A DNA stretch of 64,000 nucleotides from an uncultured Gammaproteobacteria bacterium (GCA_964371245.1 CAYJKP010000003.1:8986-72985); one strand, 5' to 3'. Shown: positions 31,983 through 51,992, counted from the stretch's first letter. Numbers and translations are program-made. Notes: a model not told the origin generated them from the sequence alone.

Positions 31983-32279
31983 TTAGGTGTGGCTCGCCGG
32001 CAGCGGCGCTTTGCTTGATACTTGGTCGCGCTCACTCGCGAGTTCTTTTGCCACCAAATCATCGACCACCATTTTTTCACGGTTGATGCTGATCACCTGA
32101 TCGCGCGACACGCAGAGGTGATGCTTAAAAATACCAGTGATTCCGTGTTTTGTCTTCACGAAGTAGCGGGTAATCCGCTGGCTGAGCTCATCAAGCTCAA
32201 AACCGTCGACGGCGCCAAGATGGGTTTCGGACTTGGTGTAGACCGGGAGTTGAATAAGCTCTTTATTGCTGAGTGACAT
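31983..32279 (-). CDS. PRC-barrel domain protein
   Basis: HLGAVDGFELDEL...DQVISINREKMVVDD resembles the PRC barrel; start taken at the internal Met (MSLSNKEL) to limit overlap with yidC (track start 32318). Confidence 0.5.
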   Translation of the reverse strand: MSLSNKELIQLPVYTKSETHLGAVDGFELDELSQRITRYFVKTKHGITGIFKHHLCVSRDQVISINREKMVVDDLVAKELASERDQVSSKAPLPASHT

Positions 32280-33030: not shown

Positions 33031-33034
33031 ATTG

Positions 33035-33289
33035 TTACCTTACTGGGTCAATCCCGCCCTTCGAAAACGGGTTGCATTTTAATATTCGTACAAATCCTTT
33101 GTACGCACCGCGAATAAGTCCATGCTTTTCGATCGATTGATAGGCATAATCAGAGCACGTCGGGGAATACCGGCAATAGCCATACGGATGGAGGTGTAAC
33201 AATGGCCCATGATCAGGCGACAGGGTTTTTTGATACACAAATATCCCCTTTAGGACTGATTTCTTTATTATTTTACCTAATTTTAGCAT
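33035..33289 (-). CDS. yidD: membrane protein insertion efficiency factor YidD
   Basis: PYGYCRYSPTCSDYAYQSIEKHGLIRGAYKGFVRILKCNPFSKGGIDPV. Confidence 0.9.
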   Translation of the reverse strand: MLKLGKIIKKSVLKGIFVYQKTLSPDHGPLLHLHPYGYCRYSPTCSDYAYQSIEKHGLIRGAYKGFVRILKCNPFSKGGIDPVR

Positions 33290-33292
33290 ATT

Positions 33293-33631
33293 TTATAGTA
33301 ATGCGCTTCTTTTTAAAATAAATGCTATATCTTGATTTATTTCGCTAAAACTAGCCTTAATAATCGTTTTTTTCACAATAATCGCGCAGTCGTAGCCATT
33401 TTTTATTTTGGCTAGTTTTAGCCTTATTATTTCACTTATTCTTCTTTTTATGAGATTTCTGTCTGTGGCCTTCTTCGCTATCTTCTGAGAAACGACAATG
33501 CCGAATCTCGATGACGGCAAGCCGTTTTCTGCTTTTCGGATGACGGCATACTTCGAAAAAAAATGGGCTCCTTTTATATAGACCCGACGAAAATCACGGT
33601 CGTTCGTTAAGCGATGTGATCGGGGGAGCAT
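33293..33631 (-). CDS. rnpA: ribonuclease P protein component
   Basis: LPRSHRLTNDRDFRRVY...FGIVVSQKIAKKATDRNLIKRRI, 112 aa. Confidence 0.9.
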   Translation of the reverse strand: MLPRSHRLTNDRDFRRVYIKGAHFFSKYAVIRKAENGLPSSRFGIVVSQKIAKKATDRNLIKRRISEIIRLKLAKIKNGYDCAIIVKKTIIKASFSEINQDIAFILKRSALL

Positions 33632-33640
33632 GATGTTTTT

Positions 33641-33775
33641 CTAGACTGACAGCCGGCGTCTTTTCTTTAGCCTTCGACGACGCAAAATCGCTTTACCGTT
33701 TTTTGTGCTCATTCGTTGGCGGAAACCATGTTTTCGCGCGCGGCGTCTTTTTTTTGGCTGATAGGTTCGTTTCGG
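33641..33775 (-). CDS. rpmH: 50S ribosomal protein L34
   Basis: [45 protein letters not shown], 44 aa (the track ORF extends further upstream). Confidence 0.9.
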
Positions 33776-33867
33776 CATAACTAAAAAGAATAATAATTTC
33801 GTGGTTATTCTACCAAGAAGTGTCGGTTTGGTCAACGATTATGTTTATTAGCCATTTCCTCCACCCC

Positions 33868-33876
33868 TCATCCACA
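33868..33876 (+). promoter_or_regulatory. DnaA-box-like 9-mer TCATCCACA in rpmH-dnaA spacer
   Basis: 8/9 match to TTATCCACA, upstream of dnaA. Confidence 0.35.
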
Positions 33877-33975
33877 TGTTATAAACCTTTTTTATTTAGA
33901 CAACCGTTTTATCTTCGGCGATTTCATGGTATAGTCTAGTTCTGAGTTTTTATTTTTTTGCTATATCGACGGGCT

Positions 33976-35358
33976 ATGACAAACGAACAACTCTGGGAAT
34001 CAGTACTTGGAGAATTAGAACTTACCCTAAGTAAAGCAAACTTCACAACCTGGTTTAAAAATACGTTTATTGCTTCGTATGACGAGAATATTGTTGTGAT
34101 CGCGGTACCAAATGCTTTTACAAAAACCTGGTTTGAAAACAAATACAACGCCCCAATTCAAAAAACGCTTCGGCACCTGACAAGCAATGAACATTTAGAG
34201 GTAACCTATAAAATTACCAGCGCCCATAATTACCGGGTGCGCGAACTTCAGTCAAATGATCTGGCTGGGCCATCGGCGGCGGCTCCTGAAACAAGCGCCG
34301 TGCCGGCCGAGGAAATAAACACCGGTCTGAGCGAGGGTGGTTTAAACCCACGCTATTCGTTCGATAATTTCATCGTCGGGAAGGGAAATGAGCTGGCCAA
34401 GGCAGCGGCCGTGGCCGTAGCCAATAAACTCGGGACTGTCTATAACCCGCTTTTTATTTATGGCGGGGTCGGCTTGGGTAAAACCCACCTCATGCAGGCG
34501 ATCGGCAACGAGGTACTGCAGAAGCAAAAAGGGAAACAGACATTGTACGTGACTTGTGAAAAATTTACGAGCGAATTTATCCAGGCGGTTGGACAAGGTA
34601 ATGCAGCTGATTTCAAAAATCGGTATCGCAACGTTGATGTCCTCCTAATTGACGACATTCAATTTCTGGCTGGCAAAGAAGGGACGCAGGAAGAGTTTTT
34701 TCATACGTTTAACGCCCTCCATCACGCCAACAAACAAGTAGTCATTAGCTCTGATCGACCGCCGAAGGCCATCCCAGCGCTCGAAAATAGGCTGATATCG
34801 CGTTTTGAATGGGGGATGATCGTTGATATCTCGCAGCCCGACTTTGAAACGCGTATGGCAATTCTTGAATTAAAATGCTCCAGCAAGAAACGCGTTTTAG
34901 ACCAAAAAATACTGCATTTTATTGCTAATTCTGTCCAAAACAACATTCGCGAACTCGAGGGCGCCCTGAATAGAATCCTCGCCTACCATGAACTTAATAA
35001 CACCGAGCCAACCCTTGATTCGACGCGCGCCCTACTTTCGAACATTACCAGTCGACCAAAGAAAGGAGCGGTCGTCCCAAAACACGTTATTCAAACGGTA
35101 GCGAGTTTTTATGATATTCAGATTGAGGATATTACCGGCGCCAGCCGTAAAAAAGAGCTCGTTGTTCCTCGACAAATGATTATGTTTCTGTTACGCGAAG
35201 AGGTGGGGTGTTCCTACCCGCTGATTGGCCAGGAGCTTGGCGGGCGCGATCACACCACCGCCATGCACGCACACACAAAAATTAAAAACGAATTACAAAC
35301 CAACGAAAAACTCAACCAAGACATACAGCTCATCAAGCAGCGTTTATATAATATGTAA
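33976..35358 (+). CDS. dnaA: chromosomal replication initiator DnaA
   Basis: MTNEQLWESVLGELE N-terminus; AAA+ Walker A GGVGLGKTHL; Walker B LLIDDIQF; C-terminal DNA-binding helix-turn-helix (track start TTG 33958). Confidence 0.95.
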   Translation: MTNEQLWESVLGELELTLSKANFTTWFKNTFIASYDENIVVIAVPNAFTKTWFENKYNAPIQKTLRHLTSNEHLEVTYKITSAHNYRVRELQSNDLAGPSAAAPETSAVPAEEINTGLSEGGLNPRYSFDNFIVGKGNELAKAAAVAVANKLGTVYNPLFIYGGVGLGKTHLMQAIGNEVLQKQKGKQTLYVTCEKFTSEFIQAVGQGNAADFKNRYRNVDVLLIDDIQFLAGKEGTQEEFFHTFNALHHANKQVVISSDRPPKAIPALENRLISRFEWGMIVDISQPDFETRMAILELKCSSKKRVLDQKILHFIANSVQNNIRELEGALNRILAYHELNNTEPTLDSTRALLSNITSRPKKGAVVPKHVIQTVASFYDIQIEDITGASRKKELVVPRQMIMFLLREEVGCSYPLIGQELGGRDHTTAMHAHTKIKNELQTNEKLNQDIQLIKQRLYNM

Positions 35359-35590
35359 GCCTGTGCAGGATGTGTGGGCGGTGTGTGACTCGATTGTGTG
35401 AAAATTCTTGCTCCTTCTATCTCCAATAAAACTTATCCCGCTTGTACGCCCGCATCATGCACGAATCCTCCCTCGCTTGCCCACATGCCAAATCGTTGTT
35501 TCATCAATCTGGGCGGGACGAATGTGATCGCTCGATGAGTTATCAACGTCTCTATATCTATTACTATATTTATTAATCTCCCTAAGCTAT
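35359..35590. promoter_or_regulatory. candidate oriC (degenerate DnaA boxes + AT-rich unwinding element)
   Basis: TGTGTG(G/A) repeats, CTTATCCCG, GTTATCAAC, TTGCCCACA (7/9 matches to the DnaA box) followed by TATATCTATTACTATATTTATTAATCTC. Confidence 0.4.
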
Positions 35591-36694
35591 ATGAAATTCT
35601 CTTGTCTCCAGGAAAATTTAAACAAAGGTCTGGCTCATGTCGGACACCTCGCAAGCAAAAATGTTTCTTTGCCGATTTTGAACAACATCATGATTCAATG
35701 CGAGAACGGAGCTATCAAACTTTCGGCAACGAATCTCGAGGTTGGCGTCAACACGATTATTCGTGGCAAGGTTGAGGCCGAGGGTAAATTAACGATACCA
35801 GCTCGTACCATCTCGGATTATGTTTCGTTGTTGTCTGACTCAAAAGTTGAGGTGGTGAGCGAGGGGCTTGAGCTGAAGATTGCTACCAAGAACGCCCGCA
35901 CAACCATCAAGGGCCAATCCGCCGATGAGTTTCCCTTGATCCCGAAAATAGAGCATAAAAACCCCTACCAAGTTCACACGAAAGACCTCAAAAAGGCTTT
36001 AAATCAAGTGGTTTACGCGGTGGCACAAGATGAATCACGGCCTGAAATAAGTGGTGTTTTTTTCAGTTTTTCGGGTAATTATCTGACGGTTGTGGCGACG
36101 GACAGTTATCGCTTGGCTGAGCGAAAAATTAAACTCGTTCAGCCAGCCAAAGAGACGGTTGAATTAATTGTGCCAACCCGGACGATCCAGGAATTGACAC
36201 GCATTATTGGCGAGGGGGCCGAAACGGTCGAAATGTACTTTACTGAAAATCAAATTCTTTTCGTCTGCGAAGGCATTGAGTTAATCTCTCGGGTGATTGA
36301 GGGGCGCTATCCGGATTATAAACAGATTATTCCGCAAGAACATAAAACACTGGCGACGTTTGATAAAGAAGAAATGATTAAGGCGGTGAAGTCGGCTGCG
36401 TTGTTTTCGAAATCCGGCATCAACGACGTCAGTCTAAAAATCCAACCGGACAAGCATCAGTTGGTTGTGGCTTCAACAAACGCCCAGCTCGGTGAAAGCA
36501 TAACTGAGGTACCAGCCGAAATTGAGGGCGACGCGAACGAGGGTGTATTTAATTATCGTTATCTCATTGACGGTCTTCAGAATCTTGATGTTGACGGCGT
36601 TATGCTGGCGTTAATCGATGGGGCTAATCCCGGCACCCTTCGGGCGAAGAGTGGTACTGACTTTCTCTACATCATTATGCCGATAAAACAGTAG
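35591..36694 (+). CDS. dnaN: DNA polymerase III beta sliding clamp
   Basis: MKFSCLQENLNKGL start, three-domain length 367 aa, position after dnaA. Confidence 0.9.
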   Translation: MKFSCLQENLNKGLAHVGHLASKNVSLPILNNIMIQCENGAIKLSATNLEVGVNTIIRGKVEAEGKLTIPARTISDYVSLLSDSKVEVVSEGLELKIATKNARTTIKGQSADEFPLIPKIEHKNPYQVHTKDLKKALNQVVYAVAQDESRPEISGVFFSFSGNYLTVVATDSYRLAERKIKLVQPAKETVELIVPTRTIQELTRIIGEGAETVEMYFTENQILFVCEGIELISRVIEGRYPDYKQIIPQEHKTLATFDKEEMIKAVKSAALFSKSGINDVSLKIQPDKHQLVVASTNAQLGESITEVPAEIEGDANEGVFNYRYLIDGLQNLDVDGVMLALIDGANPGTLRAKSGTDFLYIIMPIKQ

Positions 36695-39880: not shown

Positions 39881-41110
39881 TTGTCATTATACCAAAAGTC
39901 GACTATAATTATAAGTACTATGGCGACAAAACGAAAAACACCTGAAGACTTGCTTAGCCGCGGGGTTGAGGAGATAATCCAGCGTTCGAGCCTGGAGGAG
40001 AAACTCCGCAGCGGGCGGCCGTTGCGCATCAAGCACGGCGTCGACCCGACGACCCAAGACCTTCATTTGGGCTATGCGACGGTCTACCAGAAACTCCGGG
40101 CGTTTCAAGAACTTGGCCACACCATTATTTTTTTAGTCGGCGATTTTACCGCTCGATTTGGCGATCCGACGGATCGCGTTCAACAACGACAGCTTCGTGC
40201 CAAAGACGACATTGAGGCCAAAGCGCAAAGCTACATCAATCAAATTGGAAAAATACTAGATATCAAGAAAACGGAAATCCGCCGAAACTCTGAATGGTAC
40301 GAGAAAATGTCAGCCGAAGAACTTCTCCAGCTGCTGTCCCGGTTTACCGTCTCCCGCCTGTTGGAGCGGGACATGTTTGAAAAACGGCTCAAGGCGAAAA
40401 AAGAAATTGGCTACCACGAACCCGTTTACCCGATTCTCCAGGCCTACGACTCGGTTCAGCTGCAATCAGATTTTACGGTCATTGGCACGGACCAAAAGTT
40501 TAACGAACTCCAGGGCCGGATTTTGCAGAAAGAATTCGGCCAGGCGCCGCAGGACGTCATGACAATGAAGCTGCTGGTCGGCACCGACGGACAGCGCAAG
40601 ATGAGCCAGAGCCTCGGCAACTACATCGGCATCACCGAATCGGGAAATGAAATGTACGGCAAGGTCATGTCGATACCGGACTCAGTCATCCTTCATTATT
40701 TTGAACTAGCCACCCAGGTGCCGCTCAGCGAGTTAAAAACGATCAAGGAATCAATCGCGGGCGGCGAGAATCCCAGAAACATCAAGGCGCGCCTGGCCAA
40801 GGAGATTGTCCAGCAATACCACGGCGCGGCCGAAGCCAAGAGGGCGGCGGCTGAATTTGACCGTGTGTTCCGGGACAAGCAAACGCCTAAAGAAACCATC
40901 GCCTACGCGGCGCCTAAGCGCCCCGTCACCCTTTCGGACGTGCTGGTTGAGACAAAACAGGTGTCCAGCAAGTCCGAGGCGCGCCGTTTGATAGAACAAG
41001 GCGGCGTTAAGATAGACGGCCGGCCGCACCTCGACTGGCAGCGCCCGGTAAGCCTAAAAAAGGGAATGGTTGTCCAGGCCGGGAAGCGGAAGTTTATAAA
41101 GATTCAATAG
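39881..41110 (+). CDS. tyrS: tyrosine--tRNA ligase
   Basis: HLGY (HIGH), KMSQSLGN (KMSKS), C-terminal S4 domain; alt. start 39920. Confidence 0.85.
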   Translation: MSLYQKSTIIISTMATKRKTPEDLLSRGVEEIIQRSSLEEKLRSGRPLRIKHGVDPTTQDLHLGYATVYQKLRAFQELGHTIIFLVGDFTARFGDPTDRVQQRQLRAKDDIEAKAQSYINQIGKILDIKKTEIRRNSEWYEKMSAEELLQLLSRFTVSRLLERDMFEKRLKAKKEIGYHEPVYPILQAYDSVQLQSDFTVIGTDQKFNELQGRILQKEFGQAPQDVMTMKLLVGTDGQRKMSQSLGNYIGITESGNEMYGKVMSIPDSVILHYFELATQVPLSELKTIKESIAGGENPRNIKARLAKEIVQQYHGAAEAKRAAAEFDRVFRDKQTPKETIAYAAPKRPVTLSDVLVETKQVSSKSEARRLIEQGGVKIDGRPHLDWQRPVSLKKGMVVQAGKRKFIKIQ

Positions 41111-41156: not shown

Positions 41157-41175
41157 ATAGTCAGAATATTATGCC

Positions 41176-41261
41176 ATATAACGTTTGCGTATATCTGATG
41201 TCGCGCTAGCGATATGTGTGGAGGCTCCAGAAGAGCCGTAACCAGATATACGCTGTTAGCT
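41176..41261. repeat. attC-like site 1 (terminal, abuts tyrS terminator)
   Basis: ATATAAC-GTTTGCGTAT...ATACGCT-GTTAGCT. Confidence 0.7.
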
Positions 41262-41325
41262 GATCGTATTCCTTTTCTTTTGTTCTCTAGCAAGAGAACG
41301 TGTGAAAAAAATCTTTCAAATTTCT

Positions 41326-41601
41326 TTAATTTTTACTAGTTGCCACTAATATTGCAATAACTGAAACAACTAGAGAAGCAAACGCAATAAAAGTGGAAAT
41401 GAAAGTTAATCTGAGAGTCCGATTGAGATTCTTCAGTTCTGACAACTGCATCGCCTCAGACGCGCTTAGAGTCATTTTACATTTGCTGCATTGAAACACT
41501 GCTGGAACCATTTCACCACCATGACCAGTATTAGTGTTGGGCGATGCCTCTCTTAGTGTTTGCCAATCATGTTTGCATTTAAGTGCTTCCATGGGGTCCA
41601 C
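41326..41601 (-). CDS. cassette ORF: small protein with CxH...CxxC zinc-ribbon-like motif and C-terminal TM helix
   Basis: 91 aa, CKHD...CSKCK, hydrophobic tail. Confidence 0.45.
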   Translation of the reverse strand: MDPMEALKCKHDWQTLREASPNTNTGHGGEMVPAVFQCSKCKMTLSASEAMQLSELKNLNRTLRLTFISTFIAFASLVVSVIAILVATSKN

Positions 41602-41604
41602 GAG

Positions 41605-42588
41605 TTATTTATTAGTTGATATCTTCTCCCAGTCGAAACCAGAATTGAATATATTCTGGAACGGTTGAATAATACCCAAGGTTGTTAAATCACCAATTGT
41701 GCCCCAGGTAGGGATACCAAAAAGGCAAGCCTGATTATTCTGCTTCATTACTGCGAGCCCACCGGAGCTACCTGTATCAATAAGTGCAGTAGTGAAATAA
41801 TTATCTCGTTCCTTGCCCGAAATGATCCCCTCAGTAACAACCATGTGACGCCCCATTCGATACTGGGAATATGCTTCAAATCTTGCCAACATTATATATT
41901 TTTCTAAGTATTCAGCTGTAGGCGAAGGAAATTCTGCGGTGTCCGCTGAACTCGGATAACCAAATACATAAACCTTTTCCCCTATCGGATTCCTAAAATT
42001 ACAAATTGGAAATGATTTCGAATTGTTTTTTAACAAACGTGATTCCAGAATACTTAACAAATCGTCTTTTGTAGGTTTCCCCGTATTTTGTTCCTCTTCG
42101 TTAAGGTAATCGTTTATATCATTTATTTCGTCTGGTATCAGTATTGCCAAGTCAACAATATCACCCCTTCTTACAGAGTCGGAGGAGTATGAGAAACCAA
42201 TTCGATTAGCACCCTGAGAATCACTTTTTTGTATTTTACCTTCCTGTGCGAAATCAACAGAGCAATTATCTAAGTAGGATTTATCGGGATCGTGTAGTTG
42301 AGCAACGTGTTCATTTGTAATAACCACTCTTCTCATTTGCTCACCAGTCTCAAGTAATAGATAGGTTCCAGATCCAGCGACAATACCCTGATATTCCCCG
42401 TCAATGGTTTTACCAGGACAGATAATTGATCCAATTGACTTTGAAACATTTTTGACTTCGTCCACCGTTAATTCACTACTTACGATAACATATCGGAAAA
42501 TTGCAATATGAAAGAAATAGTCAGCAATAACGAATAAACTTGCAAGTAAAGCTAGTAGAATGTACTTATTTCTAGATAAGGATTTCAT
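41605..42588 (-). CDS. cassette ORF: membrane-anchored trypsin-like (S1) serine protease
   Basis: N-terminal TM; catalytic-triad contexts TNEHV, DLAIL, DTGSSGG. Confidence 0.6.
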   Translation of the reverse strand: MKSLSRNKYILLALLASLFVIADYFFHIAIFRYVIVSSELTVDEVKNVSKSIGSIICPGKTIDGEYQGIVAGSGTYLLLETGEQMRRVVITNEHVAQLHDPDKSYLDNCSVDFAQEGKIQKSDSQGANRIGFSYSSDSVRRGDIVDLAILIPDEINDINDYLNEEEQNTGKPTKDDLLSILESRLLKNNSKSFPICNFRNPIGEKVYVFGYPSSADTAEFPSPTAEYLEKYIMLARFEAYSQYRMGRHMVVTEGIISGKERDNYFTTALIDTGSSGGLAVMKQNNQACLFGIPTWGTIGDLTTLGIIQPFQNIFNSGFDWEKISTNK

Positions 42589-42656
42589 AGAGAAAGAAAT
42601 TTGATAGATTTTTTACACACTACGGGCGATAGCCCAGAAAAGAAAAGGAATATGCC

Positions 42657-42713
42657 ATATAACGTTTGCGTATCATACGACGTACTAGATATGTCGTATA
42701 TACGCTGTTAGCT
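42657..42713. repeat. attC-like site 2
   Basis: ATATAAC-GTTTGCGTAT-...-ATATACGCT-GTTAGCT; centre is an imperfect palindrome. Confidence 0.75.
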
Positions 42714-42785
42714 GATCGTATTCCTTTTCTTTTGTTCTCTAGCAAGAGAACGTGTGTAAAAAATCTTTCAAATTTCTTTTCGCCT

Positions 42786-44069
42786 TCATTTCAGTAAATC
42801 ATCAAGCTCACAAGAGAGTAATGCCGACTTATTAAGCACGATCTGCTCTTTTGGATTTAGTTTATCTGACGTCATGCGTATAAGCTTTGTTGTGATCGTA
42901 TCACCGAGCATGATTCGGTTAGTTTTCTTGAAATAATTTTCCGTCTTCTGATAAAAAAGCGTGGCATACTGTCTCAATTTATCTTCAGACGGCGGATGAC
43001 TTGTCGCCCCATTGCTTGTAAATTCAATCTTACCTTTTATTTTCTCGCTTTCTTTGGTTGGCAAATTACCTTCGTTAAAATCAATCCAGTAATCGCTCAT
43101 CAAATACATAACGCGAACAAACCCGCCATCTTCTGTTTTGTAGGTATAAATGAAATAGAAATTATCAGGCATTAAGTCGTGGTGCACTCTGATATGCTCT
43201 AATTCTGTAACAGTACGTATTTTGTAATCATCAAGCATCCGCAGATAGCTTTCTCGCCAATTCTGAAGCCAGTTCTCAACGTACATGCGATTTGTAAAAA
43301 GTGGCATAAGGTCCTGCTTGAGATTTTCATCGCTCACTTTATTCATCTGCAGTGTTAGCTTGTCAAAAATCGCCCGTGGATCGTTTACATTAATACCTTT
43401 GGCAACAAGATAATCAATATCAGGAACCACTTTTTTATTCATATACCAAAGAAGGTCGTAGATATCCCTTCCCTTTTCCTCGTACACTGCTTCACCCACA
43501 CCGCGAGTGCCACGCAAAAAAATGGCGGCTATCTTGCTTGCCATCAAAGCAGACATGTTGTAGGTCAAAATAACGAAAGAGAGCTGATCACGGTTCATTG
43601 GTCGACGCTCAGTAACCGTTTTAGGAGCGACAAAATGATTAAGATCTATTTTTACATGGACCTGATTGGACGCGTGACCAAATCCTAATGCTTCGCCAAC
43701 ATGGAATTTTAAAAGGAGCCCTCTGCCGGTCGTTATTTTTATTGTCAGGAAATTTGGATCAGTACCATACGTATCTTTAAAGTGATCCTCTAGCTCCTTT
43801 TTTAGATCTGCTAAAAATGATCCCGTTACAGTATGGGATACTTCAAAATCCAAATCCACTGACATGCGGTCAAGGCCGTGAATGATCCGAAGTGCCGAAC
43901 CCCCATACATCACCCATTTGCGGTATTCAGTATGATGATAAACAAAATTGAGAATGTAAAACTGCAAAGCTTCTTTCAGCTTGTTTCTGCGGGTTTCGGC
44001 ATCAAGATCGCCATAAACGGAGAGCTCATCAAGCTCTCTTTTAAGAATAGTTAGGATTTGTTCACTCAT
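42786..44069 (-). CDS. cassette ORF: AbiEii-family nucleotidyltransferase toxin (type IV TA)
   Basis: MYGGSALRIIHGLDRMSVDLDFEV matches the DUF1814/AbiEii motif GGTAL...RxSxDxDF. Confidence 0.7.
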   Translation of the reverse strand: MSEQILTILKRELDELSVYGDLDAETRRNKLKEALQFYILNFVYHHTEYRKWVMYGGSALRIIHGLDRMSVDLDFEVSHTVTGSFLADLKKELEDHFKDTYGTDPNFLTIKITTGRGLLLKFHVGEALGFGHASNQVHVKIDLNHFVAPKTVTERRPMNRDQLSFVILTYNMSALMASKIAAIFLRGTRGVGEAVYEEKGRDIYDLLWYMNKKVVPDIDYLVAKGINVNDPRAIFDKLTLQMNKVSDENLKQDLMPLFTNRMYVENWLQNWRESYLRMLDDYKIRTVTELEHIRVHHDLMPDNFYFIYTYKTEDGGFVRVMYLMSDYWIDFNEGNLPTKESEKIKGKIEFTSNGATSHPPSEDKLRQYATLFYQKTENYFKKTNRIMLGDTITTKLIRMTSDKLNPKEQIVLNKSALLSCELDDLLK

Positions 44070-44679
44070 GAATATGTCTTTTAATCATGGTATAAAAATT
44101 TTCTCGTTCGTGTGTTTCCATTTCATCAATATCTATTCTTAGTTCCTTGACGAGTACATTAATGTTTTTCAGTCTCATGCCTCGGAGTTGTCGAGTCTTG
44201 AAATACAGCAGATCAAACAGTGCCTTTGAGGGTGAGGCGATAAAAAAATCAAATGGGCCCTTAATCAGTGAGAAGCCTGAAAATAAATCCTTCTTGATGG
44301 ACTGATAGGCAAAGTTTCCTGCTTTTGTCTGGTACTCTCTTGTAACCTTTGGCGTTACTGAGGTTACAGAATGTATAGCTTCCGTTGTGAGATTATAATA
44401 CTGAAGTGCTGCCCATGAACTCACATACGACGGAGTTCGAATAACGTTAGCGAGATAAAACGAATAGGAAACCTTGCCCTTGTTTTTATTATAGATATCC
44501 GAGGATACATATAATGCCCTCTTTAGCTGGAGAATTTCCTTGAATTTTAAGTAGCGGCTGATGTAGGTATCAACCGTAGTGTCCTTAAGCCCTAACTGCA
44601 TACCAAGCTGGTATACAGTGCTTTTACTAAAATAGGGCAAGGTTTTTAGCTGTTCTAAGAGATTTTTTCGGCTTTTCAT
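44062..44679 (-). CDS. cassette ORF: AbiEi-family antitoxin/transcriptional regulator
   Basis: N-terminal wHTH, LKRALYVSSD motif, 8-nt overlap with toxin gene in antitoxin-then-toxin order. Confidence 0.65.
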   Translation of the reverse strand: MKSRKNLLEQLKTLPYFSKSTVYQLGMQLGLKDTTVDTYISRYLKFKEILQLKRALYVSSDIYNKNKGKVSYSFYLANVIRTPSYVSSWAALQYYNLTTEAIHSVTSVTPKVTREYQTKAGNFAYQSIKKDLFSGFSLIKGPFDFFIASPSKALFDLLYFKTRQLRGMRLKNINVLVKELRIDIDEMETHERENFYTMIKRHIHE

Positions 44680-44823
44680 AAATATGACAATAGTGTATCA
44701 GATGTGAAACGTAATGTCAATTCAATGAATACTGAAATCTCCCTACTTGAATGATGTGGGGAAAGAAATTTGAAAGTTTTTTACACATCCCGGGCATCAG
44801 CCCGAAAAGAAAAGGAATATGTC

Positions 44824-44876
44824 AGCTAACGTTTGCGTGTATGCGATGTGATAATATCGTATACACGCTGTTATCG
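44824..44876. repeat. attC-like site 3
   Basis: AGCTAAC-GTTTGCGTGT...ATACACGCT-GTTATCG. Confidence 0.75.
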
Positions 44877-44899
44877 GATGTATCAAATAATTTTCGTCT

Positions 44900-45468
44900 T
44901 CATTGCTGAATGACAAAGAATTTTTCTTCCGGGATTTTGTAGACAGGTAGTTTTTCGCCACGCTTTTCAAGCTCTTCCAAGTCATTTTGTTTTTCTTCCG
45001 TGTAGTGAACAAAAGCTTTGATTCGGAGTATACCGAGGCCATTTCTGACAGTTGTGCCATGGGTGCCTGTGTGGAAATATGAAGAAAGAGCACATGCGCC
45101 CGCTGATGAGCCACTGACGACCTTGCCTTTGATAAGTGCATTAAGGTTTTCAATCGATCTTAGGACGTTGAGTAGCATGTCTGTGTCACCACCACGCATG
45201 TACACCACATGAGTTTCTTGTAGCTGCTCCTGGAAGATTTTAATATCACTGTCTGCACAGATGAACTTCAAGCTCTTTTTGGGCGAAGCGGAAGAAAAAC
45301 GGTCTTTGTCTTGAGCTAAAAGTTTATCCCACTGGTCTCTCTGCCTTGCGAAATAGATACAGAGAATCGTAACAGGATCAGGAAGTCCTTTTGTCATCTC
45401 AATGAAAAATTGTTTGTTGTCCTCTGTGGGTCTGCCAGTTTCACCACCATGGAGGATATACTTTGTCA
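44900..45468 (-). CDS. cassette ORF: S51 peptidase (dipeptidase E / cyanophycinase-like)
   Basis: MTKYILHGGETG N-terminus and nucleophile context SGSSAGA; start taken at the internal Met so the ORF does not run through attC site 4 (track start 45634). Confidence 0.65.
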
Positions 45469-45496
45469 TCACAAGTAGAAAATTATTTGATATTTC

Positions 45497-45586
45497 CGAT
45501 AACGTTTGCGTATATCTGATGCCCCGCTCAGCGGGGTGTGGGTGGATCCGCCTCTGGCGGAGTAACCAGATATACGCTGTTATATG
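45497..45586. repeat. attC-like site 4
   Basis: CGATAAC-GTTTGCGTAT...ATATACGCT-GTTATAT; centre carries CCCCGCTCAGCGGGG and CCGCCTCTGGCGG hairpins. Confidence 0.75.
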
Positions 45587-45696
45587 GTGTATGCTTTTCT
45601 TTTCCCAACGTCTAGTCGGGCTACTTTTCTGCAATGGACAAATTTAATTTTCATGTTGGCAAGGGCGACGTTGGATGTAGCAACCCGTATTGTTTC

Positions 45697-46626
45697 TTAG
45701 GTACTGGTAAAATACTCGGTCAGCACGAAGGTGATCCAAATAAGAAATAAGATAACGCCTTCTTTTTTAGATATTGTTTTTCCTGTACGCATGAAATACG
45801 AAAGGACAAATGAGGCCAGGAGCATGAACGCGCCGGTGACGTAAATAATTTTCTGCGGAAAGGCGAATGGATTGATCATTGAAAGCAGTCCAACCACGAT
45901 TGTTGCGTCGGCCAGCACTGTACCTAAAATATCTCCGACTGCCAGAGAATCGTCGTGCTTTCGGACGGCCTGCAATGAAAACAGCAGTTCTGGTATGGTT
46001 GTGCCAATCCCGACAACGAGCATGCCAACGAGGACGGGCGTAATCCCCAAACTCTGCGCCAGATTCTCGGCTGATGTCACGGTAAAATGTGCACCGACGA
46101 GCAACACGGCCATGCTCGCAAGCAACAACAGGGTATTTCTAAGCCGATCACCTTGACCATCTGCAATCGATTTTGCGTCATGGCCATTCTTGAACGAAAA
46201 GAGATAGAATCCGACGCCGGCAATAATGAGTGCCGCCCCCTCCCAGCGCGAATAGTACCCGTCGAAGCCGAGGAGAATCGGGATCAGAAATAAGAACGGG
46301 TAGAGAATGTTATTTTTCAACACCTTGCTTTCGATTTTAATCCTCCGTCCTGATATGGCGATGATGATGGCGAAGACGAGCGTCAAGTCGGCGACGTTCG
46401 AGCCGAACAACGTCCCCAGGCCAAACGCCGGAATACCCTCAAAGGACGAGTTGATGGCAATAAACGTCTCCGGAAGAATAGAGATGACGGCGACAATGAT
46501 CATGCCGACGGCGTATTTGGATAGGTGAAAGTTTTCCGCCAGACGGACGGCGTATTTGGTTGCAAGGATTGCACCTTTGATGACCAAAAACAGCGAAACC
46601 GACAAAATAAATATGTTTTGTATCAT
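45697..46626 (-). CDS. cassette ORF: Ca2+/cation antiporter (CaCA/YrbG family)
   Basis: Two alpha-repeats (ILPETFIAINS, GTTIPELLFSL), 10 TM, 309 aa. Confidence 0.75.
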   Translation of the reverse strand: MIQNIFILSVSLFLVIKGAILATKYAVRLAENFHLSKYAVGMIIVAVISILPETFIAINSSFEGIPAFGLGTLFGSNVADLTLVFAIIIAISGRRIKIESKVLKNNILYPFLFLIPILLGFDGYYSRWEGAALIIAGVGFYLFSFKNGHDAKSIADGQGDRLRNTLLLLASMAVLLVGAHFTVTSAENLAQSLGITPVLVGMLVVGIGTTIPELLFSLQAVRKHDDSLAVGDILGTVLADATIVVGLLSMINPFAFPQKIIYVTGAFMLLASFVLSYFMRTGKTISKKEGVILFLIWITFVLTEYFTST

Positions 46627-46742
46627 GCGCCGCCCTTCATGTTCATTCCAAGGATGAGAATAGTAACTCTATCCATCATACAATAAATTTGTTCATTGCA
46701 GAAAAGTATTAGGCGTCAGCCGTGAAAAGAAAAGCATATGCT

Positions 46743-46799
46743 ATATAACGTTTGCGTCTCATACGACGTACTTACTATGTCGTATAGACGCTGTTGTCA
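46743..46799. repeat. attC-like site 5
   Basis: ATATAAC-GTTTGCGTCT...ATAGACGCT-GTTGTCA. Confidence 0.75.
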
Positions 46800-46852
46800 G
46801 ATCGTACATTTTTATCTTCAAAGTGAAATTTCTCACGCTAATTACCAAAATT

Positions 46853-48274
46853 TTATTCAGCCGTAGGTTGGAATGTTGAAAGAATTTTACTGTATTCAGG
46901 ATGATCTTGCTCAAAACCCTTAGCCCAAGAAAAAGTGATAAAATTTAATCCAACGGGACAATATGTGGCAAGATATTCAGCAAAACAACTTTCGGTCTGA
47001 CGGGTTACTGCTATCCCGTTTATTTCTAATGACTGCTGGTCGTGATTACAATTATATTTCTCTGCAATATCCGCTGAAGAGGCATTAGCGGGAGCCACAT
47101 CGGGGATCGCGTTGGTTACCGTTACAGCTATTTCAGGGCCAAGTTCGATGCTCGATGTTTCACCTGAATTGGGGGGAATAATAGCCACAAGGTTTGTCTC
47201 GCCATCATTAATAGTCCAATCTGGTGGGTATTGAAACGTAAAATGATAATCTTGGTTTATATATATCTTCCAATCTGAAGCTATTGAGTTCGTATTCAGA
47301 TTTTCAGAGCGATGTTGGTAAATTGGGAGATTGTCCCCATAATCCATTTTTACGTCCGCATGGATGCCATTCCATAATGTCTCCAGCGTGTCATCATGAA
47401 TGCTGTGGTCATATTGGAGAATCAAATTCTGGCCGGTTTTCGAAAGAGGATAAATCTCCTTTGTGATCGTCCCCTGCCACCCAATGGTCGTTTCCGTTTT
47501 CTCCACCTGGCGATGATAGACATACCTGTCACCTTGGAGCGTACCCCAATTCATCATTGTTTTTAAAGCATCTTCTGGAATATCAGCCTTGGGGTCATCT
47601 TCCGATTGCACGGACAAGTTCAACGGAATGGACAACCCGATACTCGAGGTGTCAGGGACCGTATTGCCCTCAGCGTAGAAGCTAAACCTATACACATTTT
47701 CACTCGGATAAGCGTTTTGCGCATGAAAAATATGCTCAGGAATATGAAAGCGCAGACCCGCTTCGTTGAATTCGCGACTGGACGATTGGGCGTACTCGCG
47801 TTCCCAGCGCTCAAGTGCCTGCTCAGTTCTTTCACAGCCAATCAGTATCGTTTGCCAGGTGCAGCTGTTTTTCCAGAGCAGCTTATCCGGATACGCCCGA
47901 ACCGGGATAAAATCCTCACTCGTCCGGCATTGGGAAAGGGGGAAGTAGTAGTAATCGCGAAACTCGGAGTTTCTCCAATGCAACGGGTTGTCCGTGGCAA
48001 TCAAGGTGAGTCCGTTATCCAGAGTTAGGGAAGTCCTGGGTTGGGCATTGATCGCTTCGACTATCGTGGCAAATTGCGTATCTTGGCACACACCCTCTCC
48101 GAGAGTCTTGCTTGTAGATTTGTACTCACCCCATGCTTCAACTTTCGTGTCAATCGCCACATCAAACATGCCAAAGACATCTTTAACGAATCCAACGTAA
48201 TATGTGCCAAGAAATACAGCAATGATTGCCAACGCGACGAGGCCGTACTTTAAAATATGTTTAGGGGTATTCAT
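46853..48274 (-). CDS. cassette ORF: hypothetical secreted/membrane-anchored protein (473 aa)
   Basis: N-terminal TM/signal anchor, W/Y-rich, no known motif. Confidence 0.5.
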   Translation of the reverse strand: MNTPKHILKYGLVALAIIAVFLGTYYVGFVKDVFGMFDVAIDTKVEAWGEYKSTSKTLGEGVCQDTQFATIVEAINAQPRTSLTLDNGLTLIATDNPLHWRNSEFRDYYYFPLSQCRTSEDFIPVRAYPDKLLWKNSCTWQTILIGCERTEQALERWEREYAQSSSREFNEAGLRFHIPEHIFHAQNAYPSENVYRFSFYAEGNTVPDTSSIGLSIPLNLSVQSEDDPKADIPEDALKTMMNWGTLQGDRYVYHRQVEKTETTIGWQGTITKEIYPLSKTGQNLILQYDHSIHDDTLETLWNGIHADVKMDYGDNLPIYQHRSENLNTNSIASDWKIYINQDYHFTFQYPPDWTINDGETNLVAIIPPNSGETSSIELGPEIAVTVTNAIPDVAPANASSADIAEKYNCNHDQQSLEINGIAVTRQTESCFAEYLATYCPVGLNFITFSWAKGFEQDHPEYSKILSTFQPTAE

Positions 48275-48335
48275 ACTCTACTTATTATATGTATACATTG
48301 TGTGGAAATGAACGAAATAAGATAAAAATGTATGT

Positions 48336-48444
48336 CTGACAACGTTCTGGTATCATGCGACGTGGTGAGTGAGCGCAGGCGGTAGAATTGTGCGGAGCAC
48401 ACCGCCGGAGCGAACGAATCCATGTAGCATATACCGTGTTGTGC
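48336..48444. repeat. attC-like site 6 (long variable centre)
   Basis: TGACAAC-GTTCTGGTAT...ATATACCGT-GTTGTGC. Confidence 0.7.
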
Positions 48445-48449
48445 GGAGT

Positions 48450-49061
48450 TTACCCGAACGATGTCTGAAGTTCGGACCAAGTAATAACCTTTGCCCAATT
48501 GTGCAGAGGGTAATTATTGAGAATCATCTCTTTCTCTTCGGGCTTGCCGGAATAGACATCAACGCCTTCCTTTAGCACCTTAACATTGTATGCGCGAAAC
48601 GTAAGCTCTTGTGCCGTACAGAAAACACAGCAATCGATTGTGAGTCCGATCAAGACAACCTCGTCTACCTCCTGAGGTGTTCCAATAGTAGAATTAAGCC
48701 AGTTCGTGAACGCTTGAGGATCTTGATATGGCAAGCCGGGTTCTTTCGTGGAATCACCGATATTGTCTCTTGTCCAAATCGGAGAATTCATGCATTTAAT
48801 CCAAATATTCTCCAATTTCACATCAGCAGGAAGCTCTGAAGTGTATCCCTCCTCCCCCGGACGCGTGGAATCATCCAAATCGCCAGGACGAGGTTGTCGA
48901 TAATCCGAAATGATCTCTGCGACTTTAATATTGCGCTCACGCAAGTACGGCACAAGAGTTTGCTTGATAAAAGCAACATTCGGGTGTGGTCGATAATGCT
49001 TGCCACCTTCCGCGCTGAACTCTTTTTGCAAGTCTACAGAGATGATTTTAATAGTCGACAT
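48450..49061 (-). CDS. cassette ORF: isochorismatase-family cysteine hydrolase
   Basis: IISVDLQKEF start and catalytic-Cys context VLIGLTIDCCVFCTAQE. Confidence 0.65.
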   Translation of the reverse strand: MSTIKIISVDLQKEFSAEGGKHYRPHPNVAFIKQTLVPYLRERNIKVAEIISDYRQPRPGDLDDSTRPGEEGYTSELPADVKLENIWIKCMNSPIWTRDNIGDSTKEPGLPYQDPQAFTNWLNSTIGTPQEVDEVVLIGLTIDCCVFCTAQELTFRAYNVKVLKEGVDVYSGKPEEKEMILNNYPLHNWAKVITWSELQTSFG

Positions 49062-49113
49062 TTATTAACGTGAAATTAAGTGATATTGAATTGGAATAGC
49101 GAGGGTAAATTTC

Positions 49114-49176
49114 GCACAACGTTTGCGTATCATGCGCCGTGGAGCGAAGTGGAATGGCGTATATACGCTGTTGTAC
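49114..49176. repeat. attC-like site 7
   Basis: GCACAAC-GTTTGCGTAT...ATATACGCT-GTTGTAC. Confidence 0.75.
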
Positions 49177-49282
49177 GCTGTTCAAAAAATATTTTTCTTT
49201 AGGTATTTAAAACACGCGAAACCAAACCATGACAGTAGGTAACATTTCGGTGGCATTATTTCGTGCTGGAGCCGTGATGCTG

Positions 49283-49813
49283 CTACTGCGCGTTGACCGT
49301 AGAACGATAAAGGTTTTTCGTTAATGCCCACCAGAAGGAGGTTTGAGTAATATTGGGTTGCGAATTAGCATCCTCTTGGAGAGTAATCACATCATCACTG
49401 ATATCTACAACAGTCCATTTACCAGGACTGAATATGTAGGCACCATATTTAGCACTGGACTTTGGAACGCGTAATACCTTTAGTGCGCCATTCTCTTTGT
49501 ATGCTTCAAACGTAGCAAGAACAGATCCGTACCCCCCTTCGGCAATATCAAACGGCTCTTGCTGGGGGGCTAAAGCCGAGTATGCATAGAACTTGAAGGA
49601 TCCGGCAAATGTTTCGCTGGTATTATAGTAGACGCCAAGCAGCACAAAAGCGAATCCGATGAATGCAAATAATCCCGCGACAGCAAGTCCGGTACGCTTC
49701 CAGGGAGTAACGTGTGTTTTAATAACGAGCCACACTATGACAGCTGCGGCGATAACTAGGATCGGTAAAATTACGAACCAGGTAACCATGTTTGTTCCAA
49801 TTTGTTCATTCAT
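49283..49813 (-). CDS. cassette ORF: hypothetical membrane protein
   Basis: 176 aa, two N-terminal TM helices. Confidence 0.45.
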   Translation of the reverse strand: MNEQIGTNMVTWFVILPILVIAAAVIVWLVIKTHVTPWKRTGLAVAGLFAFIGFAFVLLGVYYNTSETFAGSFKFYAYSALAPQQEPFDIAEGGYGSVLATFEAYKENGALKVLRVPKSSAKYGAYIFSPGKWTVVDISDDVITLQEDANSQPNITQTSFWWALTKNLYRSTVNAQ

Positions 49814-49903
49814 AGGTATTTTGTTAAAAATATTGACATATTAAATTTAGAAAAGATGCTCTGGCTACTTTCATAGGTCGCCAGAGCGTGTCAGCCGCTT
49901 CAC

Positions 49904-50275
49904 TTACGGACAGCTTCCACTCCACGGCTCGGGCTCGCCGTCATAGCCGAATTGCAGACAGCCGAGGTGAGTGGTTCCACTCACACACTTCGATGGCCAG
50001 GTATGCGACTCGACGCCGATCCCGTTTACCCAGGCATTTGCGATGTAGCCGCAGCCGGACGAAAGACCGGTGAACGAAATGGTTCTGTAGCCGAAAGGAA
50101 GCGAGACGTTGGTGTCCTCTGCCATCTTCTGACCGTTCTGCCAGATCTGCACGGTGTACGAGACAGACGTCGGCCCCCTGAGCGTGACCTGAGCGGTGTC
50201 GGCCAGAGCGGGAGTGACCTCCCCCGCGATGAAGAATGCTGCGAGAAGCAGGAGCAACACGACTTTCGTTTTCAT
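49904..50275 (-). CDS. cassette ORF: small secreted Cys-containing protein, GC-rich
   Basis: Signal peptide MKTKVVLLLLLAAFFIAGEVTPALA; local GC clearly above neighbours; 8-bp-stem hairpin terminator just downstream (49866-49895). Confidence 0.5.
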   Translation of the reverse strand: MKTKVVLLLLLAAFFIAGEVTPALADTAQVTLRGPTSVSYTVQIWQNGQKMAEDTNVSLPFGYRTISFTGLSSGCGYIANAWVNGIGVESHTWPSKCVSGTTHLGCLQFGYDGEPEPWSGSCP

Positions 50276-50469
50276 TTCAGCCCTCCAAGTTCAACCTGAA
50301 CAGACGACCACTGAGTTTCCGAACAGCTAAAATAACCGTGCCTCCTTTCTCGGCGTTACTCAGCCGATGATGGCCTAGGTTCGAAAGAGCATACTACTTT
50401 AATACTTATTATACTCTGCTAATTCTAGCCAGTCCAGCGGATATTAAAGAAAAATATTTTTTGAATGGC

Positions 50470-50526
50470 GCACAACGTCCGGGTATCATACGCCTGTACT
50501 CGTATGGCGTATATACCCTGTTATCG
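50470..50526. repeat. attC-like site 8
   Basis: GCACAAC-GTCCGGGTAT...ATATACCCT-GTTATCG. Confidence 0.75.
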
Positions 50527-50548
50527 GATGTTAAGAAAATTTTTCCGT

Positions 50549-50872
50549 TTACTCCAGGCGAACATCATCTTCCTTCTTAAACTCTGGCGAGCAAACAAGA
50601 AAAATTTTCATTTTACCCACAAAGTTGTAGGCGGTATTTATAGGTATAAATACAACATCGTCTCTTTTGACAGAATATTTTTCTTCTTCAATAAAAAAGT
50701 CACCAGATCCTTCAGCAATATAGTAAATTCTGTCTTCATTCAAACACTTCACTTTTCCATGATTACCGTTTATCTCAATTAGCGCACCACTATATTGCTG
50801 CGTGAGTTTATACTCCTTAATATTCATTGGGCCGACTTTTTTGTTGTTTGTTAGTTCGCTAGCAATATACAT
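50549..50872 (-). CDS. cassette ORF: cupin-domain protein
   Basis: 107 aa, double-stranded beta-helix pattern (...YYIAEGSGDF...DVVFIP...). Confidence 0.5.
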   Translation of the reverse strand: MYIASELTNNKKVGPMNIKEYKLTQQYSGALIEINGNHGKVKCLNEDRIYYIAEGSGDFFIEEEKYSVKRDDVVFIPINTAYNFVGKMKIFLVCSPEFKKEDDVRLE

Positions 50873-50902
50873 ATGAATTGATTTATAATATTTTCTTAAT
50901 TT

Positions 50903-50985
50903 CCGATAACGGGCCGCGGCTGATGCGACGTGGCCGGAGCCCCGCTTTGCGGGGTGACGGACATGTTCGCATAGGCGCTGTTGTG
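50903..50985. repeat. attC-like site 9 (between first cassette and recombinase; GC-rich centre)
   Basis: CGATAAC-GGGCCGCGG...GCATAGGCGCT-GTTGTGC; centre has a CCCCGCTTTGCGGGG hairpin. Confidence 0.6.
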
Positions 50986-51032
50986 CGATGTCGCAGCAGC
51001 GACGAGCAGAACAGCGACGGTAGGCGCGGCCC

Positions 51033-51173
51033 GTTGTGGCGAGGAGCGAAGCGATTTCGCCACAACTAGTTATTATGCGTACTTAAGGCCTATTATGCCC
51101 CTATTATTGCATGTTTTGCGTAATAGTGCTAGTTTATTAGCGACGGGAATATTTTATCCGTTATTTTTATTTT
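51033..51173. promoter_or_regulatory. candidate attI / cassette promoter region
   Basis: Perfect 10-bp inverted repeat GTTGTGGCGA...TCGCCACAAC (51033-51066), then two direct TGCGTA repeats (51076-51081, 51117-51122) resembling the attC L-box, in AT-rich DNA abutting the recombinase start. Confidence 0.35.
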
Positions 51174-51992
51174 ATGACCGTTCAAACCCACATTGACCAG
51201 ACAGTCAGAGAGCTGAAAATACGCAACTACAGTCCGAAAACCGTCAAAGCCTATGTCTACGGAATTCGGGAATACCTGATTTACAAAAATACGGATTTTC
51301 ATGTGTACAGCGAAGAAAGCGTTAAAGATTACCTCCATATGCTGGAACAGAGGGGCGTGTCGGCGCAAACCAGAAATGTGTGCCTAAACGCGATAAAATT
51401 CTTTTACTGTGCCGTTGTGCGCTCCGTGTCCGGCGTCGAGGTGCGTTCGGCGAAAAAAAGTAGGAGCCTGCCGGTCGTGCTTTCCCGGGATGAAATAAAG
51501 ACTATAGTTGATAGCACGCGAAACGCCAAGCATCGGCTGCTGATCTCTCTGGCTTACGGCGCCGGCTTGCGGGTCAGCGAGGCGGTGAATCTGCGAACGG
51601 GCGACATCGATACGAATGAGCTGACGGTGCGGGTTCAGGGAGGCAAGGGCAATAAAGACCGGCTGACGCTGTTTCCTGGCCGCCTGGCGGATGATATGAG
51701 AAATATGCAGGCCGGAAAAAGCGCTGATGATTTTGTGTTTGCCAGCGAACGCGGTGGCCCCTTGACCGCGAGAACCGCTCAGAAAATATTCGAACAGGCG
51801 CTGGCCAGATCCGGCATTAAAAAAAACGCGACCTTCCACAGCCTGCGGCACAGTTTTGCCACGCACCTGCTGGAAAACGGCGTTGATATACGGTACGTTC
51901 AGGAATTACTCGGCCATAGTAATATCAGGACGACGCAGCTGTACACACAGGTTACAAATCCGATGTTGAGAAACATAAAAAGCCCGCTGTAA
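51174..51992 (+). CDS. tyrosine site-specific recombinase, IntI-like N-terminal half but without the IntI-specific extra domain (Xer-length catalytic half)
   Basis: 272 aa; YSPKTVKAYVYGIREYL, SRSLPVVLSRDEI, KHRLLISLAYGAGLRVSEAVNLR, GKGNKDR, LRHSFATHLL, LLGHSNIRTTQLYT (catalytic Y); ~60 aa between GKG..R and HxLRH. Confidence 0.75.
   Translation: MTVQTHIDQTVRELKIRNYSPKTVKAYVYGIREYLIYKNTDFHVYSEESVKDYLHMLEQRGVSAQTRNVCLNAIKFFYCAVVRSVSGVEVRSAKKSRSLPVVLSRDEIKTIVDSTRNAKHRLLISLAYGAGLRVSEAVNLRTGDIDTNELTVRVQGGKGNKDRLTLFPGRLADDMRNMQAGKSADDFVFASERGGPLTARTAQKIFEQALARSGIKKNATFHSLRHSFATHLLENGVDIRYVQELLGHSNIRTTQLYTQVTNPMLRNIKSPL

Follow-up and report, generated by a model that had tools for sequence, protein, structure and literature searches.

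Where does recombination cut an integron-like array whose cassette ends are inverted repeats of each other over tens of bases, and what do these repeats do? The question is raised by a 64,000-nucleotide (nt) stretch of CAYJKP010000003.1 (8986-72985; assembly GCA_964371245.1), here called the window, in which nine palindromic attC-like sites (S1–S9, 41.2–51.0 kb) divide nine cassettes between tyrS and a tyrosine recombinase gene. The original prediction, made from the sequence alone, read the locus either as an attC architecture with unusually long outer arms or as units bounded by terminal inverted repeats (TIRs) and moved by a related but distinct mechanism. We propose that the arms probably extend the R-box (R''/R') stem of the folded site in the circular cassette.

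The host is a Patescibacteria (candidate phyla radiation, CPR) genome, and the array is chromosomal and integron-like. Every cassette open reading frame (ORF) lies on the minus strand, divergent from the adjacent recombinase gene (+), with an attI-like region in between. G+C content is 38–46% in the array versus 50–53% in the flanks, and the identified cassette products are a trypsin-like protein, AbiEi/AbiEii, a peptidase S51, a Na/Ca exchanger and an isochorismatase-like protein. On the + strand each site reads RYYYAAC-GTTT-GCGTAT(C)...centre...ATACGC-T-GTTRRRY. Its parts are, in order, the 12-nt left box (ATKTCNNNYAAC), GTTT as a bulged spacer, the L-box stem, a centre that varies, the partner of the L box, a single T and the 12-nt right box (GTTRNNNGATGT). 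Pairs between the two site halves covary (alignment and pair table of the nine sites), and a covariance model built from the nine sites scores 52–77 bits on the + strand and at most 30 bits on the − strand. The extra bases TTT and C are bulged in the 5' half of the + strand, a position that matches the extrahelical bases of the canonical attC bottom strand; since the + strand is the complement of the coding strand, this is the integron layout. The nine sites are thus imperfect palindromes with the RYYYAAC/GTTRRRY boxes, L boxes, variable centre and unpaired bottom-strand bases of attC sites. The recombinase lacks the additional domain specific to IntI (the I2 helix, around patch III), and we therefore call the array integron-like rather than a canonical integron.

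Cassette ends are long cognate inverted repeats

The right flank of each site pairs with the left flank of the following site, in register from the GTT/AAC triplets, in all nine cassettes. Inverted repeats running beyond the 7-mers had been predicted for eight of these; all eight have them, as does a ninth, ORF-less cassette beside attI. Local alignment of cognate flanks gave scores of 55, 71, 48, 65, 40, 26, 49 and 33 for cassettes 1–8, against 10–22 for non-cognate flanks, except among cassettes with a common arm family. Measured from the triplet, the arms reach ~73 nt in cassette 1 (pairing begins at nt 12), 90 nt in cassette 2, 27 nt of solid pairing in cassette 3 (52 nt with gaps), 81 nt in cassette 4 (ungapped blocks of 26 and 25 nt flanking a non-matching hairpin), 26, 18, 32 and 24 nt in cassettes 5–8 and ~16 nt in the ninth. 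With the first 12 nt left out, none of 2000 dinucleotide shuffles paired as well as the arms of units 1, 2, 3, 4 and 7, and three did for unit 5; pairing was marginal in the short-armed units 6, 8 and 9 (8–68 of 2000 shuffles as good). The non-cognate matrix and the shuffles rule out chance or AT-richness as the source of the arms, which the original prediction had named as the finding that would undo it.

Cognate pairing is general. Among 38 consecutive-site pairs from 13 arrays, the median cognate score was 35 versus 16 for non-cognate flanks, and 33 of the 38 exceeded the non-cognate 95th percentile (24). Further metagenome arrays displayed the same pairing. A metagenome scan with AACGTTTGCGT-N-CGCTGTT gave mainly chance matches, with real sites at only ~5 of 80 loci. 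Across arrays most arms measure 16–32 nt, a subset of 45–90 nt is composite, and every cassette examined retains at least 16 nt of end pairing. The premise that canonical cassette ends are complementary over only 6–7 bp was too strict: six class 1 cassettes scored alike (dfrA12, gcuF, aadA2, cmlA1, aadA1 and qacH) pair for 7–12 nt, with scores of 12–24.

Some arms are common to unrelated genes. The AbiE cassette and the cassette encoding a 327-amino-acid (aa) protein have arms of one family (type A), and those of the exchanger cassette are of a related type B. A direct repeat of 82 nt (41246-41327 and 42698-42779, 99% identical) spans, in cassettes 1 and 2 alike, the core end, the box and the right arm in full, and looks like the product of recent homologous recombination or conversion between arms. 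Because of this repeat the 9-nt boxes of cassette 1 are non-complementary (GTTAGCTGA versus CCATATAAC), yet its outer arms pair, and S2 forms a ~190-nt palindrome inside the array; it is the only site whose own two flanks also pair within the array (score 60). That the two leftmost cassettes share an arm was therefore correctly predicted for their right arms, both of which carry hairpin GTTCTCTAGCAAGAGAAC, but the hairpin difference attributed to the two copies lies instead between the arms of one cassette, with GGGCTATCGCCC and GGGCTGATGCCC on the left arms. In the peptidase S51 cassette the end similarity runs into the coding sequence, ATGACAAAGTAT in the first four codons having an inverted near-copy, ATGACAAAGAAT, in the last codons.

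Genome comparisons place the exchange point at the triplets

The exact recombinase was found on 23 contigs with one cassette order throughout. The alternative orders in the population that the original prediction had suggested looking for, to map the crossover, were thus absent among these contigs, and searches with close cassette-protein variants led to the same population; breakpoints came from other genomes instead. Locus L090 has a syntenic array, running from tyrS to the recombinase (64% identity) and then galT, in which all cassettes differ save the Na/Ca exchanger. The exchanger cassette is 87% identical over window positions 45567-46753, the homology stopping at the S5 AAC, and homology resumes exactly at 51064, the attI AAC, for the attI-recombinase region. 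The AbiE cassette occurs in six genomes (the window and five others; ORF identity 82–97%), where the conserved block extends from GTTAGCTGA to TCAGCTAAC with both arms included and the sequence beyond the boxes differs; in L092 the downstream site of the AbiE copy is degraded, which makes that boundary uninformative. In L226 (1-112, 1373-1460) a 327-aa/88-aa cassette, 86% identical to window cassette 1, is joined straight to attI, and the junction lies just past ...AACGAG.

Because homology stops at the AAC/GTT triplets and not at the outer ends of the arms, the arms lie inside the mobile unit. As placed by these comparisons (S5 and attI AAC, both AbiE boxes in six genomes and the L226 attI junction), the exchange point is at the triplets, 16–90 nt from the palindrome ends and well inside the site. 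A crossover at the outer arm ends, the other outcome that would have told against the original prediction, is ruled out, since the arms are always inherited with the gene. The predicted crossover at the GTT box needs revision: canonical polarity together with the attI and S5 breakpoints makes AA|C of the left box, on the + strand, the best-supported position. Moving it there does not change which arms come together.

Rejoined ends fold into long hairpins and co-evolve

We reconstructed the junction of each circular cassette by joining core k to the left arm of site k+1 on one side and to the right arm of site k on the other. Rejoined ends are predicted to form hairpins of 97–243 nt, each as one long helix with a DNA folding energy of −26 to −73 kcal/mol, versus −14 to −60 kcal/mol for these cores when left in the array; compared with shuffles, the z-scores range from −6.6 to −11.3. 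The long hairpins expected of the joined circles were thus recovered, and together with the triplet breakpoints they favour the first of the two predicted readings, an attC architecture with long outer arms and an internal crossover. The + strand is 2–9 kcal/mol more stable than the − strand, except in the core-only fold of S8. In the long-armed cassettes (AbiE, 327-aa and exchanger) a small hairpin in each arm gives a four-way-junction consensus.

We aligned five rejoined type A junctions, four from copies of the AbiE cassette and one from window cassette 1; of the 75 predicted pairs, 10 have changes on both sides. Six of the 10 fall within the outer stem, with its halves separated by 2 kb in the genome, and four within a side hairpin. 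In L226 both triplets have changed jointly, to GAT...ATC for GTT...AAC, in a compensatory manner.

A 12-nt box with strand asymmetry

In 64 sites from 19 arrays (CPR lineages and one Spirochaetia array), the conserved box is 12 nt long. Positions 4–9 and 12 are complementary between the two boxes, with positions 5–7 specific to the cassette. Position 10 is T.T or G.T. At position 11 nearly every site has G in the right box and T in the left, so that a T.G wobble forms on the + strand where the − strand has a C.A mismatch. Judged from this conservation, the recognised element would reach well beyond the classical 7-mer. Arms of 11–12 bp are typical of Xer-type sites.

These features suggest how the arms might act. 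A crossover at AA|C would assign all sequence beyond the triplets to the neighbouring cassette, so that each cassette end would carry the outer 9 nt of a box plus 4–80 further mutually complementary nt. Because the crossover is internal, the stem halves sit at opposite ends of the linear cassette and are reunited only in the circle. Excision as a circle would then join the ends into the continuous hairpin, with a four-way junction and two small side hairpins in long-armed cassettes, and the folded + strand would be the substrate. The long stem would stabilize the single-stranded site of the free cassette and offer a fully paired 12-bp box, whereas sites within the array are hybrids, paired at the conserved positions only and more weakly. 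Folding and recognition of the free cassette would be favoured in this way, which might also offset the missing I2 helix.

The recombinase lacks the IntI-specific domain

The recombinase has intact, invariant catalytic residues, and its closest solved structure is VchIntIA (2a3v). That alignment is split, skipping ~43 residues, with query residues 171–201 opposite chain residues 173–246; against IntI1 the protein has gaps of 12, 19 and 11 aa, which include the IntI signature segment ALERKYP...W. It scores 218.5 with the integron integrase model TIGR02249, under the cut-off of 265, and 220.1 with the XerA model, at the cut-off of 220. In IntI the I2 helix holds the extrahelical bases, and integron recombination is thought to need this helix together with short structure-specific attC sites.

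The family is large, with more than 7800 homologues of ~270 aa, mostly in Patescibacteria. At least eight other CPR loci with enough upstream sequence have like sites upstream of homologous recombinases, on the same strand. Many public contigs with recombinase homologues (loci L010–L038) stop 100–600 nt upstream of the gene, which suggests that assemblies routinely break at such arrays and that these are under-represented in metagenome-assembled genomes. In a Spirochaetia locus (L076, 5734-10086) a short recombinase of 38% identity is followed downstream by five like sites on the other strand. The cassette ends of this locus pair over just 16–18 nt. Neither the site type nor the 12-nt box is therefore restricted to CPR.

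Weighing explanations for the arms

Several observations weigh against a functional R-box stem, and most of them fit what we consider its main rival, an unlikely one, in which the arms are historical by-products without a role in recombination. The arms would then be halves of long homogeneous donor palindromes, or would stem from hairpin-primed copying of flanks at cassette birth; an internal crossover would leave each cassette with two halves of one palindrome, which then decay. Such an origin would account for arm families common to unrelated genes (type A and the related type B, above) and for arm lengths that range from 16 to 90 nt, and S2 serves as an in-array example of a donor-type site whose arms match. 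The motifs shared by the long arms of the AbiE, 327-aa and exchanger cassettes may likewise mark a conserved long attC type from a donor lineage. Uncompensated changes are tolerated in cassettes resident in arrays: the L090 exchanger cassette has five in one outer arm, the L098 AbiE copy has lost 46 nt of its 5' arm and is still in an array, and cassette 1 of both the window and L090 combines non-complementary boxes with matched outer arms. Decay alone is harder to reconcile with the several changes on both sides that preserve pairing across genomes, including the near-invariant triplet, although gene conversion or copying, rather than selection for pairing, could mimic this covariation. It also sits poorly with the retention of at least 16 nt of pairing in every cassette examined, and the conserved asymmetric positions 10–11 point to a constraint on the stem past the 7-mer.

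Site cores are tied to genes less strictly than the canonical model would have it, and one fixed crossover point would not lead us to expect this either. Cores are not always tied to the same gene, as seen in window cassettes 1 and 2, in the S3-type core common to L097 and in the L090 sites. The window and L097 both have an S3-type core, the AbiE unit and an S1-type core, with homology breaking, non-canonically, at the S3 GTT box, and the AbiE unit is flanked by several core types across the six genomes. Three L090 sites (3842-3909, 7261-7328 and 8474-8541) have near-identical cores and different boxes and arms; these cores appear to have been homogenized within the array independently of the cassettes. 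All of this, together with a recombinase that lacks the I2-containing domain needed for canonical single-strand attC recognition, would suit TIR-bounded units of box, arm, gene, arm and box that move by a non-canonical mechanism with exchangeable cores, either box being usable because either strand folds or because an Xer-like enzyme acts on double-stranded half-sites. We nevertheless hold this to be less probable still than a by-product origin. A core of the same family stays on the canonical side of the gene in several genomes: the AbiE two-hairpin core in L097, L098 and L101, one core type with the 327-aa unit in L226 and L098, and one L-box type with the exchanger in the window and L090. 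Homologous recombination between arms that resemble each other, such as the 82-nt duplicate, can account for the exceptions. Free recombination of inverted half-sites would not yield the single orientation of all genes and sites seen in every array, and bulges and wobble are confined to one strand. The predicted "related but distinct mechanism" thus has some support in the missing IntI-specific domain and the loosely linked cores, and is opposed by the same-family cores on the canonical side, the fixed orientation and the one-strand asymmetry.

A role at the RNA level, with pairing between 5' and 3' untranslated regions or local hairpins controlling stability, termination or translation, seems very improbable. 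The arms do abut start and stop codons, and their side hairpins retain stems through compensatory changes. Against this, the arms hold no terminator-like or promoter-like sites, regional counts of which do not exceed those in shuffles; on either strand the side hairpins are preceded by a T-run and followed by an A-run, unlike a terminator; no Rfam family matched; and the wobble pairs favour the non-coding strand. In the AbiEi/AbiEii toxin-antitoxin cassette a promoter-like TTGACA-17-TACACT with a TG extension (44692-44720, −) is conserved in six genomes, and because it lies downstream of the 5' arm the transcript would be without that arm.

A transposon or miniature inverted-repeat transposable element (MITE) reading was discarded: the cassette ORFs contain no transposase domain, there is no target-site duplication, the ends abut conserved boxes and the breakpoints lie at the triplets. 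The likeness to MITEs and other TIR elements is limited to terminal inverted repeats of tens of bases round a short mobile segment.

Comparison with known recombination systems

The arrays share with class 1 and chromosomal integrons a divergent tyrosine recombinase, attI-like repeats and a one-orientation array of mostly single-ORF cassettes. Also in common are imperfect palindromes that combine RYYYAAC/GTTRRRY boxes with L-box stems, a centre that varies and bottom-strand bulges, a crossover at AA|C / G|TT, cassette content that varies between related genomes at the same locus, and complementary cassette ends, a consequence of a crossover inside the R box. Unlike integrons, they have a recombinase without the I2 helix that scores under the integron-integrase cut-off, a 12-nt conserved box with a one-strand T.G wobble, end complementarity of 16–90 nt versus 7–12 nt in the six class 1 cassettes, a four-way junction formed from long arms, looser linkage of core to gene, and a CPR host.

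From Xer/dif systems, a comparison set that also includes the single-recombinase XerA, XerS and XerH systems, the arrays differ in having 60–110-nt hairpins repeated along the array rather than a single double-stranded 28-bp dif (11-6-11) that serves dimer resolution, in lying beside oriC rather than the terminus, and in moving single genes rather than phages or islands. They resemble these systems in the size and architecture of the recombinase, in its XerA model score at the cut-off, in the 11–12-bp box and in the ...AYAA| cleavage context. Among Xer-exploiting elements, the folded single-stranded attP of CTX phage is a precedent for a folded strand with exchange of one strand. The pdif modules of Acinetobacter plasmids are likewise gene modules bounded by inversely oriented recombinase sites, but pdif sites are 28-bp double-stranded XerC/XerD sites with neither a hairpin core nor long arms, and their modules occur in either orientation, whereas here orientation is uniform in all arrays examined and the arrays are chromosomal and beside a dedicated recombinase gene.

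As a broader and rather tentative proposal, the arrays may represent an I2-less 'proto-integron' cassette system, widespread in CPR and also present in Spirochaetota, in which an Xer-sized recombinase would read folded attC-like sites through the 12-bp box, the T.G wobble and cassette-supplied long stems, with crossovers possible at either box. If so, the long arms would be a structural substitute for a missing protein domain and might record cassette birth, for instance through inverted duplication primed by a hairpin. The I2-less recombinases beside attC-like arrays form a large natural family; with long co-evolving end repeats and an asymmetric 12-nt box, these systems provide an intermediate or alternative design that can be tested, and bear on two open questions, the origin of IntI-type from Xer-type recombination and the origin of cassettes and attC sites. 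Even if the arms were without function, the crossover point and true box extent in this lineage would still be mapped.

Integron searches that demand the IntI domain would miss a whole class of CPR cassette platforms. A full-text literature search, of incomplete coverage and so weak evidence of novelty, turned up no account of CPR integrons, attC arrays next to I2-less integrases or long repeats at cassette ends. A study of archaeal integrons found many attC arrays and few IntI genes; this is compatible with overlooked I2-less enzymes.

Feature coordinates and surroundings of the array

Table 1 Positions of sites, cassette arms and flanking genes, numbered from the first nucleotide of the window.
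Feature	Position	Strand	Details
tyrS	39881-41110		Left neighbour of the array
S1	41174..41263	+	attC-like, two-hairpin centre, distal array end; AAC 41180, GTT 41255; 60.9 bits
Cassette 1 right arm	41255..41327		Box GTTAGCTGA, inner stem, hairpin GTTCTCTAGCAAGAGAAC, outer stem
Cassette 1 left arm	42593..42663		Outer stem, hairpin GGGCTATCGCCC, inner stem, box CCATATAAC
S2	42655..42715	+	AAC 42661, GTT 42707; 77.2 bits
Cassette 2 (AbiEi/AbiEii) right arm	42707..42796		
Cassette 2 (AbiEi/AbiEii) left arm	44744..44830		Hairpin GGGCTGATGCCC; box TCAGCTAAC
S3	44822..44878	+	AAC 44828, GTT 44870; 66.4 bits
Cassette 3 (peptidase S51) right arm	44870..44921		Solid pairing up to ~44896
Cassette 3 (peptidase S51) left arm	45458..45503		Solid pairing starts ~45477
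S4	45495..45587	+	Two-hairpin centre; AAC 45501, GTT 45579; 57.2 bits
Cassette 4 (Na/Ca exchanger) right arm	45579..45659		
Cassette 4 (Na/Ca exchanger) left arm	46673..46749		
S5	46741..46801	+	AAC 46747, GTT 46793; L090 homology stops at AAC
Cassette 5 right arm	46793..46818		
Cassette 5 left arm	48319..48343		
S6	48335..48446	+	AAC 48341, GTT 48438; 55.8 bits
Cassette 6 right arm	48438..48455		Short
Cassette 6 left arm	49103..49120		Short
S7	49112..49178	+	AAC 49118, GTT 49170; 67.7 bits
Cassette 7 right arm	49170..49201		
Cassette 7 left arm	50445..50476		
S8	50468..50528	+	AAC 50474, GTT 50520; 63.8 bits
Cassette 8 right arm	50520..50543		
Cassette 8 left arm	50887..50910		
S9	50902..50988	+	AAC 50908, GTT 50980; 52.6 bits
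Cassette 9	50910..51065		ORF-less, adjoins attI; ends GTTGTGCGA-TG-TCGC (50980-) and GCGA-TT-TCGCCACAAC (to 51066) pair likewise
attI-like region	51064..51173	+	AA|C crossover (putative) 51064-51066; repeats TTATTATGC (51070), CTATTATGC (51090), CTATTATTGC (51101)
Tyrosine recombinase	51174..51992	+	272 aa, IntI-related, without IntI-specific domain; divergent from cassettes

Besides its three direct repeats, the attI-like region holds one inverted repeat, GCGTAATAG. The distal array end (41165-41182; ATATTATGCCATATAAC) bears the same TATTATGCC word as this region, and the distal flank of the L090 array, TTATTTCATGTAAC, resembles that distal end. The attI repeats and the distal-end word are putative accessory binding sites for the recombinase, possibly split halves of an ancestral attI.

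To the left of the array, 32263-36694 contains yidC (−), dnaA (+) and dnaN (+), and the cumulative GC-skew minimum lies at ~26–34 kb. dnaA and dnaN are 5–7 kb from the array, and their position and the skew minimum place oriC 5–15 kb to its left. A reading of attI as dif at the terminus is ruled out by these same neighbours. With oriC on the left, the + strand of the sites, which folds better, would serve as lagging-strand template and replication would meet the cassette genes head-on; the orientation reported for Vibrio chromosomal integrons is the opposite. Elsewhere in the window, 11976-20600 is occupied by a single 2874-aa ORF on the + strand.

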